Assembly: GCA_023252035.1 (NCBI GenBank)
Contig: JAHEXQ010000001.1
Location: 1 to 48,596, forward strand
From: Actinomycetes bacterium
Lineage (GTDB): Bacteria > Actinomycetota > Geothermincolia > Geothermincolales > JAHEXQ01
Direction of reading: 5' to 3'
Length of the DNA: 48,596 nt
Shown here: positions 5,099-28,691 of the stretch, piece after piece
Layout: every line of letters starts with the position of its first letter
Numbering within the stretch: position 1 is the stretch's first letter
Notes under the pieces: model-generated
Database searches by the model: none
What the model was told of the DNA's origin: nothing
The model's input: the letters and a program-made list of their open reading frames with translations, nothing else
Made by a program: the position numbers and the translations under genes

Positions 5099-5854
5099 TT
5101 ATATATCCAATATCATATCCTGGAGAGCTACATCCACGGGTCCATCGTAGGCCTCCGCGGCCTCGCTGCGGCTCTGCTCCCGGTCGAAAGTCGGCCAGAT
5201 GTGCGTTAGCACCAGCCGGGCGGCGCCCGCCTCCCGCGCCGCCTGCCCAGCTCCCGCGGAGGTCATATGACCGTGCGCGTGCTCGGCAAAACTGTTGATC
5301 ATGGTCGCCTCGCACAGGAAGAGGTCCACGCCGCGGGCGGCCTCCACAAGGCCAGGACAGGGCGCCGTGTCTCCCGAATAACCCAAGGTGCGTGCAGGTC
5401 CATCTACCGTTTCCAGGCGCAGACAGAAGGCCTCGACCGGATGGAAGGCCGGGTAGCATTGCACCTGCAAAGGCCCCGCCCGAAAGCTCTCTCCCACCTG
5501 GAGATCATAGGGTGTGAACACGCGCTCTAGATATGCCCGGGAATCCTCGCCCATGATCTTACCCATGGTCGCGAGTGCGCCCCGCGGCGCGTATAGCGGC
5601 AGGCCCCAGGGCTTATCGAGATGAAACCGCATGGCATAGAAGAGCGGGTAGAGGTCCAGGTAATGGTCCACGTGCATGTGGCTTATGACCACCGCGTCCA
5701 GCCGGGTGAAATCCACGGTCTTCAGCAGATTGGCCATGCAGCCGGTGCCGAAATCCAGCAAGATATCAGCACCCGATTCCTGGATGAGAAAGCCGTTGCA
5801 GGCCTCACCCGGGCGGGGATAAGTCCCCGAGCCGCCCAGCACAATTACGCGCAT
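5099..5854 (-). CDS. MBL-fold metallo-hydrolase (position equivalent to mycobacterial Rv1339)
   Basis: MRVIVLGGSG...ISHMHVDHYLDL carries the HxHxDH metal motif. The gene order murI-MBL-rph-rdgB matches Rv1338-Rv1341 (from memory). Confidence 0.85.
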   Translation of the reverse strand: MRVIVLGGSGTYPRPGEACNGFLIQESGADILLDFGTGCMANLLKTVDFTRLDAVVISHMHVDHYLDLYPLFYAMRFHLDKPWGLPLYAPRGALATMGKIMGEDSRAYLERVFTPYDLQVGESFRAGPLQVQCYPAFHPVEAFCLRLETVDGPARTLGYSGDTAPCPGLVEAARGVDLFLCEATMINSFAEHAHGHMTSAGAGQAAREAGAARLVLTHIWPTFDREQSRSEAAEAYDGPVDVALQDMILDI

Positions 5855-5857
5855 TTA

Positions 5858-6023
5858 AGTGTTCCATTCCATAAATACACTGGCATTCGAACGCCTATCC
5901 ATCCACGCCGGCTGTGTTCCGCTCCCTCGATGTACTACTGCGAGTACGACATCGGTCGCGCGCCTTGCCGACGCGGCGCCTAGACGCTCTCGGTGCGTCA
6001 CCGTATTTATGGAATGGAACACT
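5858..6023 (+). repeat. 166-nt palindrome-ended element, copy 1 (candidate structured RNA or MITE)
   Basis: It has perfect 21-bp terminal inverted repeats AGTGTTCCATTCCATAAATAC / GTATTTATGGAATGGAACACT. The interior is ~90% identical to the reverse complement of 22396-22558. It fills the murI-MBL intergenic gap. Confidence 0.85.
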
Positions 6024-6037
6024 AGCCCAGCCTTGCC

Positions 6038-6862
6038 TCAGAGCGAGGCTTTCTCCACGTGTTCTACTTCCGGCCCCAGGAACATGCGGCCCAACCTGCG
6101 CGCCAGCTCCGTATCCCCGGAACAGAGGAAACGGTAGGTGCGCGGTTCGTCCGTGTCCCTCGCCAGTCCCTCTTCGGCGAGGACCCGCTCCACTTCGGCC
6201 GCGGTGGCATCGGCGGAGCTGATGATGGTCACACCGTCGCCGATGACCCGGGCGATGGGCTTGTGCAGGAGCGGGTAGTGGGTGCAGCCCAGGATGAGCG
6301 TGTCCACCCCGGCTACTCTCATAGGCTCGAGGTACTCTTCGAGCACCTGCTCGATGTGCGCTCCCTCCACCTCCCCACGCTCCACGAACTCGACCAGGAG
6401 CGGGCAATCCCGCGAGGTTATCTCTATCTTCCGGGAGAGAGAGCCGATTCGCCTGGTGTAGGCGCCGCTCTCGATGGTGGCCTTGGTCCCGATGACCCCG
6501 ACTCTCTGGTTGCGCGTGCGCCGCACCGCTTCCAGGGCACCAGGTTCGATGACGCCGATAACCGGCACTTCGCAGGCGTTCTTCACGTAGCCAAGACCGG
6601 CTGCCGTAGCGCTGTTGCAGGCGATGACGATCATCTTCACGCCCAGGTCCTCGAGGAAGGCCGCGATATCCATCGCGTACTTGCGAACCAAGGTCAGGTC
6701 TTTGGAGCCATAGGGGCCCCGGGCGGTGTCGCCGTAGTAGATGATCGACTCCCGCGGAAGCCTATCGATCACCGAGCGCATCACGGTGAGTCCGCCTACG
6801 CCGGAATCAAAAATCCCAATGGGGTTGTTTCTCATATTCCTCGTTTCTTCAAACATGCCCAC
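6038..6862 (-). CDS. murI: glutamate racemase
   Basis: IGIFDSGVGGLTV, the ACNSATA and GCTHYPLL catalytic-Cys motifs are present. The start is probably the ATG at 6856 (MFEETRN). Confidence 0.93.
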   Translation of the reverse strand: MGMFEETRNMRNNPIGIFDSGVGGLTVMRSVIDRLPRESIIYYGDTARGPYGSKDLTLVRKYAMDIAAFLEDLGVKMIVIACNSATAAGLGYVKNACEVPVIGVIEPGALEAVRRTRNQRVGVIGTKATIESGAYTRRIGSLSRKIEITSRDCPLLVEFVERGEVEGAHIEQVLEEYLEPMRVAGVDTLILGCTHYPLLHKPIARVIGDGVTIISSADATAAEVERVLAEEGLARDTDEPRTYRFLCSGDTELARRLGRMFLGPEVEHVEKASL

Positions 6863-7609: not shown

Positions 7610-7957
7610 TGGTGGAGGCGGGGGGAGTTGAACCCCCGTCCGAAGCCAAAACGTCGCAGTATGCTACGAGCGTATCCGCCGTTTAGTTTCGCCCGGCCGG
7701 CACCCGGCGGCCAGAACCATCCGAGCTATCCCGGTTAAGATTTCCCTACACCCCCACAGGATTCGGGTTTCGGTAATCCCGCTATACGACGCCCTTTCAT
7801 CAGACGCGGGCATTCTGATGAAGAACGGACCGCTTTAAGCGGCCAGTGCCAATTCGGTGTTGGCGTTTGTTTTTTTCTCCGATTTTTTAACGAGATATCG
7901 GAGAACTCGGCTCGCAACTACGTCCGCTACTAGCCCCGTCGAACCCGTGACGCCCCC
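7610..7957 (-). ncRNA. ssrA: tmRNA (SsrA)
   Basis: The 5' end GGGGGCGTCACGGGTTCGACGGG and the 3' tRNA-like end GGACGGGGGTTCAACTCCCCCCGCCTCCACCA are both present. The internal tag reading frame ends ...GCC AAC ACC GAA TTG GCA CTG GCC GCT TAA (ANTELALAA). It lies directly downstream of smpB. Confidence 0.9.
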
Positions 7958-8616: not shown

Positions 8617-8686
8617 ATCCTTACATCGGGGACAGGACTTAAAGTAAGGATATTATCCTTACTTCAAGTCCTGTCCCCATTGTAAG
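8617..8686. repeat. two inverted copies of a 35-nt hairpin repeat (REP-like); possible ctpA terminator
   Basis: Unit ATCCTTAC-N19-GTAAGGAT occurs at 8617-8651 (reverse orientation) and 8655-8686. Together they form a ~33-bp near-perfect palindrome. The same unit recurs at 28657-28691. Confidence 0.8.
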
Positions 8687-14387: not shown

Positions 14388-14438
14388 CGGCCGTTAACTA
14401 CAATCCGGGGCCAGGCCCCGGATTGTAGTTAACGGCCG
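14388..14438. repeat. perfect 51-bp palindrome overlapping the prfB stop codon (terminator-like hairpin or protein-binding site)
   Basis: Arms 14388-14412 and 14414-14438 are exactly complementary (CGGCCGTTAACTACAATCCGGGGCC-A-GGCCCCGGATTGTAGTTAACGGCCG). The prfB TAA (14431-14429) lies in one arm. No U-run follows. Confidence 0.6.
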
Positions 14439-22128: not shown

Positions 22129-22363
22129 GAGGGGGCTCCGGTACCGGCTGACCTGGTCTTTTCCCCCACACTCGCCTGCTGAGCGTTCCGCAGCGGCGGC
22201 CGTGTTACGGGCCCTTCCGCCACTCCAGCGCTTCTCCAGCTTAGGCCGGGCAGGTCTTACCCCTAAGCCGCACTATGCTCACTAACGAGATGTTAGCTTA
22301 CGTGGGTCGTTTAGCCTGCGACTGGCATCGACTTTCAACCACAGACCCGGGCCGGAACCCCTC
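22129..22363 (-). ncRNA. ~235-nt structured leader domain upstream of hpf (candidate raiA-motif-type RNA)
   Basis: 5' GAGGGGUUCCGG (22363-22352) pairs with CCGGAGCCCCCUC (22141-22129) as 12 bp with one bulge. This encloses several nested GC helices and a GCUUAGG/CCUAAGC alternative pairing. The domain starts 6 nt after a TATAAT box and lies between comFC and hpf, where raiA-motif RNAs are reported. Confidence 0.35.
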
Positions 22364-22368
22364 GAAAA

Positions 22369-22374
22369 ATTATA
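22369..22374 (-). promoter_or_regulatory. -10 box (TATAAT) for the hpf leader transcript
   Basis: This is an exact TATAAT on the minus strand. The first purine 6 nt downstream (G22363) is the first base of the leader's closing helix. The -35 is not convincing. Confidence 0.35.
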
Positions 22375-22395
22375 CCATGGAGCGCAGATGGACTT

Positions 22396-22558
22396 AGTGT
22401 CCCTTCCCATAAATACGGTGACGCACCGGGAGCGCCTAGGCGCCGCGCCGGCAAGGCGCGCGACCGAAGTCGTACTCTTAGTACGTCGAGGGAGTGGAAC
22501 ACAGCCGGCGTGGATGGATTGGCGTTCGAATGCCAGCGTATTTATGGGAAGGGACACT
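22396..22558 (-). repeat. 163-nt palindrome-ended element, copy 2 (inverted relative to copy 1)
   Basis: It has perfect 21-bp terminal inverted repeats AGTGTCCCTTCCCATAAATAC / GTATTTATGGGAAGGGACACT. The interior matches copy 1 in reverse orientation, with loop indels and point changes. Confidence 0.85.
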
Positions 22559-22621
22559 TAGTGCCGGGAGTTGTTGATGGACCGTCTGGCGAAGGTGCTC
22601 TACCAGAGTCGCTCGGAGGCC

Positions 22622-27574: not shown

Positions 27575-28645
27575 TCATCGCGCCGCCTCTACCATCTGCC
27601 TTATCGTGGGCGCGGAGGGCGGCCCGAGTACTCCGGCCTCCGTGATGATGGCGGTTATCAGCTCGGCGGGCGTGATGTCGAAAGCGGGGTTGCGCGCCTG
27701 CACGCCGGCCGGGGTCAGCTCTGTTCCTCCGCAGCCGCAGACGCAGATCTCGCCGGGATCCCGCTCCTCGATGGGGATGCCGGAGCCGTCCGGCAGGCCC
27801 AGATCGAAGGTGGACAGGGGCGCCGCGACGTAGAAAGCCACTCCGTGGCGCTGAGCCAGCACCGCCAGAGGATAGGTCCCTATCTTGTTGGCGGTGTCGC
27901 CGTTGGCCGCGATGCGGTCGGCTCCCACCACGGCTGCGTCTATCTCTCCCCGGGACATGAAGTGTCCCGCCATGTTGTCGCAGATGAGCGTCAGCGGTAT
28001 CCCGGATTTCTGCAGTTCCCAGGCGGTCAGCCGGGCGCCCTGCAGGAGCGGCCGCGTCTCGTCCACGAAGACGTTCTCGATCTTTCCCATTTCATGTGCA
28101 GCACGGATGACCCCCAGAGCCGTGCCGTACTCCACGGTCGCCAGGCCGCCCGCGTTGCAGTGGGTGATGACCCGGCAGCCCTCCGGCAGCAAAGCGGCGC
28201 CGTTGTGCCCGATGGCACGGTCCGCCTCCTCCTGCTCCCGGGAGATGGCCAGGGCCTCGTCCACCAGGGCTTCCCTCAGGGCTGCCGCGTCCGGGTAATC
28301 CGAGCCAGCCATCCGGCGCATGCGCCGGATGGCCCAGAAGAGGTTCACGGCGGTGGGACGTGTCGAGGCGAGCAGGTCGCAAGCGGCCTCCACACTCGAC
28401 CTTGCTGTAGATAGATGCGCGGTTGGGTCCACCGCCAGCGCCACTCCCATGGCCGCCACCACGCCGATGGCCGGGGCTCCGCGGACGCTCATACGCGTGA
28501 TGGCCTCCGCCACCTCTGCGGGCTGCGTAAGCGTCAGATAAAGCTCCTGGGCTGGGAGCCGGGTCTGGTCAATCAGGATGACCTTTCCGTCCCGCCACTC
28601 CACCGATCTCGGCAAGCTTGTCCTTTCTTTAGGTAGTGACCCCAA
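27575..28645 (-). CDS. mtnA: S-methyl-5-thioribose-1-phosphate isomerase
   Basis: [17 protein letters not shown]...VRGAPAIGV...CNAGGLATV...[18 protein letters not shown] belong to the eIF-2B/MtnA family. Confidence 0.88.
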
Positions 28646-28656
28646 TGAAAGCCGTT

Positions 28657-28691
28657 ATCCTTACTTTAAGTCCTGTCCCCAATGTAAGGAT
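28657..28691 (+). repeat. third copy of the 35-nt hairpin repeat
   Basis: ATCCTTACTTTAAGTCCTGTCCCCAATGTAAGGAT has an 8-bp stem and a 19-nt loop. It abuts the ahcY stop codon and differs by 1 nt from the copy at 8617-8651. Confidence 0.8.

Follow-up and report, generated by a model that had tools for sequence, protein, structure and literature searches.

The element that occurs twice in the window (the whole 48,596-nt stretch of DNA analysed here) is a MITE (miniature inverted-repeat transposable element), and the base pairing of one of its strands is under selection. The MITE reading is established by the many copies, the duplication of a TWA triplet at the target site, the empty orthologous sites and the lack of an orientation bias relative to genes. 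A first-pass annotation of the same DNA had proposed either a structured non-coding RNA family or a MITE; the latter alternative is borne out by these four observations, while of the former the selection on the pairing of one strand holds and an ordinary RNA family does not, given the duplications and the empty sites. A plain MITE, expected to lack internal covariation, was not found either, because the internal helices covary and pairing is selected on one strand only. As a whole, the data are probably best explained by a non-autonomous DNA transposon of ~162 bp that inserts at TWA, is selected for the pairing of one strand and is represented in the window by one constrained copy (copy 1) and a second copy.

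The two copies in the window

Copy 1 (5858-6023, plus strand) and copy 2 (22396-22558, minus strand) were both found in the window as previously described, each with a perfect terminal stem (21/21 pairs) in an inverted-repeat search. The earlier estimate of ~90% identity between them corresponds to a mean column identity of 91% in our alignment, which includes a few flank bases. The three stem differences (T/C, A/T and T/C; AGTGTTCCATTCC versus AGTGTCCCTTCCC) are all mirrored in the partner arm, and the alignment reproduces the loop differences (GTACT-ACTGCG-AGTAC versus GTACT-AAG-AGTAC, and AUCG versus UUCG). The 21-bp stem is thus correct as to pairing; its outermost A...T pair does not belong to the element and consists of target-site duplication bases, with the final base of one duplication paired to the opening base of its counterpart. 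A target-site duplication, of which the first-pass annotation saw no clean instance, exists: TAA/TAA is perfect at copy 2, and TAA/TAG carries one mismatch at copy 1. The features of the two copies, read in part directly from the sequence, are as follows.

5859-6022, plus strand: copy 1, element proper, 164 bp, GTG...CAC, in the orientation of the family alignment
5856-5858, plus strand: left target-site duplication of copy 1, TAA (read from the sequence)
6023-6025, plus strand: copy 1, right target-site duplication, TAG, which departs from TAA at one base (read from the sequence)
5859-5878, plus strand: left terminal inverted repeat of copy 1, GTGTTCCATTCCATAAATAC (helix 1)
6003-6022, plus strand: right terminal inverted repeat of copy 1, GTATTTATGGAATGGAACAC (helix 1)
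5912-5967, plus strand: conserved asymmetric core of copy 1, CTGTGTTCCGCTCCCTCGAT, tip hairpin, then ...TCGGTCGCGCGCCTTG
5932-5936 (GTACT) and 5943-5947 (AGTAC), plus strand: tip hairpin of copy 1 (covarying helix 6)
22397-22557, minus strand: copy 2, element proper, 161 bp, in the orientation opposite to copy 1
22558-22560, minus strand: copy 2, target-site duplication TAA (minus-strand reading), located 5' of the element in its own orientation
22394-22396, minus strand: copy 2, identical target-site duplication TAA (minus-strand reading), located 3' of the element in its own orientation

Both copies match the family profile over its full length in nhmmer (copy 1 at model positions 1-162 with E = 6e-45, copy 2 with E = 1.6e-43), and the profile search returned only these two copies in 48.6 kb. 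They are oppositely oriented relative to local transcription. The stem of copy 2 reaches 29 nt at 93% complementarity. Folding of copy 1 yielded -69.0 kcal/mol for the plus strand (z = -5.7) and -89.9 kcal/mol for the minus strand (z = -9.2), judged against 200 shuffles; the better-folding minus strand has the mRNA sense of the murI-MBL operon. Exact occurrences of the inner arm motif CCATAAATAC number four, and with at most one mismatch there are six, compared to 0.9 matches expected. By these z-scores and motif counts, the structure of the copies and their repeated arm motif are far beyond chance. The CGAC-NUCG-GUCG hairpin is not kept across the family alignment. A coding reading of the core was ruled out by loop lengths that differ by non-multiples of three (ACTGCG versus AAG).

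Family, target site and orthologous loci

Genomes (one per species) were scanned with the pattern CCATAAATAC-N(100-130)-GTATTTATGG. Seventy loci matched in these species-representative genomes, ~43 of them being true relatives that share the internal sequence of the window copies, and pattern scan and profile searches together gave ~80 distinct full-length relatives. Of the ~43 true relatives, 22 lie in the Actinomycetota MAG KR13_S3.mb.41, which with two extra copies holds at least 24, and six in KR13_N2.mb.8; others come from MAGs of Candidatus Geothermincolia and of additional Actinomycetota. One or two matches each were obtained in MAGs bearing the labels Syntrophobacteria, Myxococcota and Gemmatimonadetes; how some hosts are labelled at phylum level depends on MAG binning. 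Proteins homologous to those encoded beside the window copies carry the names Candidatus Geothermincolia or Actinomycetota, and this assigns the host of the window to that lineage. Profile searches near the seeds revealed further copies, for example three within 8 kb of locus L020, and a scan with a core pattern found the core at 120 or more metagenome loci. As the public collections were each scanned with one exact pattern, these copy numbers are minimum values, and relatives that have diverged are poorly represented. In four other samples, contigs of the same species as the window stop within the element, as a repeat would lead one to expect, and there is no empty site among these contigs. 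A repeat of such high copy number breaks short-read assemblies of Geothermincolia-type genomes.

The element was not matched in the plasmid collection (distant-mode search), nor was the core in the viral contigs scanned. Rfam 15 gave no match on the element at gathering score in the window scan; in a permissive search, copy 1 produced chance-level matches only (E above 5) and the type-B element described below only weak matches to plant miRNA hairpins. Only chance primer matches came up when the literature was searched for the motif strings and for repeats of Geothermincolia, and a review of prokaryotic MITEs describes no comparable element. The earlier remark that this is not a named family is therefore consistent with Rfam and with motif strings that lack a relevant literature context: bacterial MITEs are well known as a kind, and the family of the window elements appears undescribed in Rfam and the searchable literature.

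Family members measure 160-164 bp, contain no conserved ORF and end in GTR...YAC. Their terminal arms of 20 nt (helix 1) are 98.6% paired among 41 representatives, and the inverted repeats run on imperfectly through most of the element, the ~80-nt core being non-palindromic. In the 78 distinct full-length copies, the target-site duplication is perfect in 28 (19 TTA/TTA and 9 TAA/TAA), the flanking triplets are one mismatch apart in 19 and the flanks are reduced to TA/TA in 13; shifted registers of the triplet gave 0-2 matches only. The middle base of the triplet agrees directly in 28 copies and is inverted or discordant in two, which makes the triplet a duplication rather than a portion of the inverted repeat. 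One base further out, C stands on the left in 51/78 copies and G on the right in 48/78. In copies that lack this outer C or G at one end (for instance L018, L022, L028, L037, L058, L067 and L021), the inner TWA is duplicated nonetheless, which rules out a 5-bp CTNAG duplication with TG...CA ends as in IS3/IS481-like elements. A 2-bp TA duplication with a variable extra base was ruled out for type A, the family of the window copies, by the directly agreeing middle base.

PIF/Harbinger elements duplicate TWA, their NuwaII group targets C|TNA|G with a discussed ambiguity between 3 and 5 bp, and PHIS transposases are related to bacterial IS5 (PMC4482050), within which the IS1031 group has a three-nucleotide target (PMC2516522). 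The window family shows the same 3-bp TWA/TNA duplication and C...G context as these IS5 / PIF-Harbinger (PHIS) elements (IS1031, ISL2 and IS427 groups of IS5) and as Tourist-like MITEs, down to the NuwaII ambiguity, and like the Tourist-like MITEs it is short, bounded by inverted repeats and present in high copy number. Tourist elements are, however, eukaryotic while the host here is bacterial, and the GTR...YAC ends appear to differ from the GG/GA-type ends of the IS5 groups. The insertion site of the element is T(T/A)A, with C|TWA|G as the favoured context, and these three bases are duplicated; a DDE transposase belonging to the IS5 / PIF-Harbinger (PHIS) type presumably mobilises it in trans. 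This transposase assignment follows from the footprint, since no cognate transposase or full-length element was detected in ~200 fetched loci. Inverted repeats lying 600-3500 bp apart in these loci (~1.2 Mb) delimited unrelated elements only and no autonomous element with matching ends; clustering of ORFs of at least 220 aa yielded housekeeping paralogues only and no recurrent transposase; and solo inner-repeat motifs, considered as autonomous partners, were all further MITE copies or chance matches.

The locations given previously, namely a murI/MBL spacer for copy 1 and an flgM-like/hpf leader for copy 2, were both recovered: copy 1 is located upstream of the MBL start codon at a distance of 4 nt, and copy 2 in the flgM-raiA spacer upstream of the raiA RNA and hpf. 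Two "housekeeping" spacers of the window thus contain transposon insertions, with the following neighbouring features.

5099-5854, minus strand: ORF of the MBL-fold hydrolase gene, start codon at 5852-5854
6038-6862, minus strand: ORF of murI, stop codon at 6038-6040
6031-6037, minus strand: Shine-Dalgarno-like GGCAAGG between the murI stop codon and copy 1
22369-22377, minus strand: extended -10 box TGGTATAAT of the raiA RNA/hpf unit, 22 nt downstream of copy 2
22138-22355, minus strand: raiA RNA (RF03072, 157.6 bits, Rfam scan), which precedes hpf

The murI-MBL spacer measures 183 nt in the window and in loci L195 and L197, where the element is present at the same position and in the same orientation (MBL 82-84% identical to the window), compared to 12-19 nt in L200, L201 and L202, where it is absent (MBL identity of 62%, 74% and 57%, respectively). 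The flgM-raiA spacers of L203, L204, L206 and L207 do not contain copy 2, and relatives without this MITE (hpf 93%, 88% and 79% identical) have retained the TGGTATAAT promoter box and the raiA RNA. The pattern of occupied and empty orthologous spacers indicates that copy 1 is an old insertion common to three lineages and copy 2 a younger, lineage-specific one. Copy 1 came into the murI-MBL spacer in an ancestor of these lineages, between the ribosome-binding site and the MBL start codon, and copy 2 inserted just upstream of the raiA/hpf promoter. The end of copy 2, 22 nt upstream of the TGGTATAAT box, lies where a -35 element would be located. The window scan with Rfam also placed a tmRNA at 7610-7957 (minus strand).

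At the empty L201 junction, a gap of 5 nt separates the GGCAAGG motif from the MBL start codon; in the window this distance is now 176 nt, unless the element folds. We infer that the motif is a ribosome-binding site split from the MBL start by copy 1. The orthologous MITE is 91.5% identical to copy 1 in L195 and 97.6% in L197, compared to 81-86% and 83-88%, respectively, for the murI, MBL and RNase PH genes and to 62% at third codon positions of MBL in both loci. As it has evolved far more slowly than synonymous sites, copy 1 appears to be constrained in place, judging from this one orthologous locus in three lineages. Both loops and stems of the orthologues are conserved, and the few changes include U-A to U·G on the mRNA-sense strand. 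In L195, the very terminal base and the duplication have decayed, which fits a copy that no longer needs transposition. Concerted evolution was judged an unlikely source of this conservation, the window paralogues (91%) being more diverged than the orthologues. A systematic search for further orthologous insertion pairs among the fetched loci found the murI-MBL case alone. A plausible reason for the constraint is that the closed stem of copy 1 would keep the displaced GGCAAGG near the MBL start codon, and the location of copy 1 between ribosome-binding site and start codon provides a test of whether a folded MITE is neutral or required in an operon.

Pairing of one strand and a core shared between frames

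The structure was analysed in a set of 41 representatives (at most 95% identity) aligned on the strand complementary to the plus strand of copy 1. In the consensus, 49 pairs form a rod. Standard pairs are formed in 97.4% of the cells, compared to 90.4% in shuffles and 29-43% in slid controls, and 34 of the 49 pairs show changes on both sides (13.3 +/- 2.0 in shuffles, 7-12 in slid controls). Covariation beyond the terminal stem, which the first-pass annotation had suggested to look for, was observed in three internal helices and in the tip hairpin, with the tip variants GTACT/AGTAC, ATAGT/ACTAT, ATAC/GTAT and GTGCC/GGCAC. In 79 of 80 type-A copies, it is the complementary strand that folds more stably (mean of -92.7 versus -75.0 kcal/mol), and among the non-Watson-Crick cells at its paired positions there are 339 G·U and 17 A·C. 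Many paired positions run through the full series G-C, G·U and A-U, and both C-to-U and A-to-G steps contribute to the G·U excess. Unpaired columns show all four types of transition in roughly equal measure; this symmetry rules out a strand-specific mutation bias as the origin of the excess. It is this preponderance of G·U over A·C in pairs, absent from unpaired columns, that reveals the selection on the pairing of one strand.

The selected strand folds into a rod-like hairpin, and RNA is considered its most likely acting form, because the copies sit inside transcription units. A simple consensus scan detected no sigma-70-type promoter in or beside either window copy, and a role as RNA would therefore depend on read-through transcription. 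No orientation bias was seen relative to co-directional neighbours (22 sense versus 29 antisense), and 15 elements lie between convergent and 7 between divergent genes, all as defined by a crude ORF caller. As RNA, the element might be a compact double-stranded module like Correia or ERIC, which could be processed or could stabilise or insulate the transcript.

In the orientation of copy 1 (plus strand), the middle of the element consists of GCGTTCCGCTCCCT, the tip hairpin and TCGGTCGCGCGCCTTG, and the near-invariant core stretches are TCGGTCGCGCGCCTTG and GCGTTSCGCTCC. A profile match at L016 and the metagenome core scan located the same core of ~80 nt inside MITEs with unrelated inverted repeats: those of type A are GTGCCCCGTTCCATAAATAC, those of type B GCCCGCATTTCTCACCAGGTTTC and variants thereof. 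Type-A ends read GTRCCCC...CCATAAATAC, type-B ends GCCCGCATTTCTCAC. Type-B elements are ~177 bp long and have TA flanks in 12/17 copies; further frames with the same core occur at L183, L170 and L142. An extra helix distinguishes type B, formed by matched and covarying insertions on either side of the tip hairpin (GGGCTCC/GGAGCCC, AAACTCC/GGGGTTT and GGCCTCC/GGGGGCC), and its strand asymmetry is 54 G·U versus 8 A·C. A transposase gene was never seen beside the core, neither at the core-bearing metagenome loci nor in the ORF clustering across ~200 fetched loci. Since the metagenome scan selected on the core, core invariance in that sample is partly circular, and the repeat-ascertained genome scan is the only independent sample of core conservation.

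Several loci carry rearranged or composite elements. In Acidobacteriota MAGs, the type-A terminal repeat GTACTCCCTTCCATAAATACGATGA... with TWA flanks surrounds a different interior (loci L007, L014, L016 at 6587, L019, L039, L041, L045, L049 and L062), so that repeats and interiors appear to have been recombined. At L039, a full copy and a solo right end flank a glycosyltransferase-like gene, and at L118 (~6013-6220) one type-A copy is nested in another. At L121 (metagenome contig Ga0102851_10102297, 603-1877), an insertion splits a type-B MITE near its right arm, the displaced right end being found at ~2087; the insertion contains an ORF of 424 aa that by eye resembles IS110-family transposases. 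A 1.5-kb element at L141 (182-1677) with 19-nt inverted repeats GGAGTCTGCGCGGCAGGAA and TA flanks within CTAG abuts a type-B-like MITE end and is the parent of neither MITE type.

Alternative explanations and related systems

An argument against the preferred explanation is that cut-and-paste transposition of double-stranded DNA alone leaves a family-wide selection on the pairing of one strand unexplained. Such selection at the level of the family, combined with the lack of an orientation bias, keeps two alternatives under consideration. According to one of them, the function resides in the core, a payload that would be a structured RNA or a single strand to which protein binds and that travels on several transposon frames with the inverted repeats as vehicle. 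As a functional RNA or protein-binding single-stranded DNA, it would have spread across MAGs labelled as several bacterial phyla on at least two unrelated frames and been retained after insertion through purifying selection by the host, as at the murI-MBL junction. We regard both the payload itself and this wider history as rather unlikely, at the same level. The core with TCGGTCGCGCGCCTTG, GCGTTSCGCTCC and the covarying tip hairpin inside unrelated inverted repeats, the extra covarying helix of type B and the conservation of loops as well as stems in the copy 1 orthologues all agree with a payload, and a core that never neighbours a transposase gene is not simply the end of an insertion sequence. 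However, no promoter, orientation bias or Rfam relative accompanies it, the circularity of the metagenome sample weakens its invariance, and the pattern would likewise arise, with no function for the host, if related transposases whose ends have diverged acted on one ancestral MITE held in common.

The second alternative, movement as single-stranded DNA with the hairpin as substrate (as for IS200/IS605-derived palindromic elements or REP/REPIN units, with a transposase of the Y1/RAYT type), is improbable. It predicts the strong strand-specific pairing selection observed, and in its favour, G·T is also the mismatch that DNA hairpins tolerate best. REP/REPIN (RAYT) and IS200/IS605-derived repeats are, like the window family, multi-copy intergenic palindromes with a strand-specific single-strand hairpin. 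Yet they are short palindromes, and to our knowledge neither IS200/IS605 nor REP/RAYT produces a target-site duplication or has full-length terminal inverted repeats, as opposed to the element-long inverted repeats and the clear duplication seen here; it is the directly duplicated triplet (19 TTA/TTA and 9 TAA/TAA versus 2 discordant) that disfavours a single-stranded substrate, and no Y1 transposase was present near any copy in the fetched loci. The least probable reading is that two operons use an ordinary family of small RNA genes, or a cis-regulatory leader, that is not mobile. The stable fold, the covariation and the operon spacers occupied by both window copies would suit it; dozens of copies per genome in unrelated contexts and in both orientations relative to genes, target-site duplications, empty sites in close relatives and nested copies (L118) do not, nor does the failure to find a promoter or an Rfam match.

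Correia elements (NEMIS) of Neisseria are units of ~100-160 bp that are bounded by inverted repeats, have a TA-containing duplication, are scattered in intergenic and operon spacers and are co-transcribed with their neighbours into long hairpins that can be cut by RNase III. The window element resembles them in size, architecture and locations; it appears to be unrelated in sequence and differs in its 3-bp TWA rather than 2-bp TA duplication, in its hosts (Actinomycetota and MAGs of other phyla) and in a core shared with MITEs of other inverted repeats. ERIC/IRU sequences of enterobacteria are imperfect palindromes of ~127 bp in transcribed spacers, and their compensatory substitutions have been read as a sign that RNA structure is selected. 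Covariation is likewise found in the window family, together with a G·U excess on one strand; sequence and hosts are unrelated, and mobility is here documented directly by duplications and empty sites. The family is unusually well placed to address the old question of whether the hairpins of bacterial MITEs are tolerated or selected, and three independent signals point to selection: the pairing of one strand, the core maintained across unrelated ends and the several-fold slower evolution of the orthologous copy.

Other repeats were noted in the window. An unrelated imperfect palindrome of ~36 nt (ATCCTTAC..GGGGACAGGACTT.AAGTAAGGAT) with a REP-like look is present as two head-to-head units at 8617-8686 and as one good and one degenerate unit at 28618-28691; it belongs to a family separate from the MITE and was in none of the fetched loci. 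A perfect palindrome of 25+25 nt with a 1-nt centre (CGGCCGTTAACTACAATCCGGGGCC and GGCCCCGGATTGTAGTTAACGGCCG on its two sides) is located at 14388-14438. The 3' end of the tRNA at 2201-2273 is repeated exactly over 26 nt (2251-2276 and 2459-2484) ~200 nt downstream, the kind of scar that is left by an element integrating at a tRNA gene. Finally, several direct repeat pairs of 120-300 nt with 75-97% identity lie 1.6-5.7 kb apart between 33684 and 48519 (e.g. 33684/39385, 40378/42167, 43039/44616 and 46200/48350) and suggest tandemly duplicated genes.
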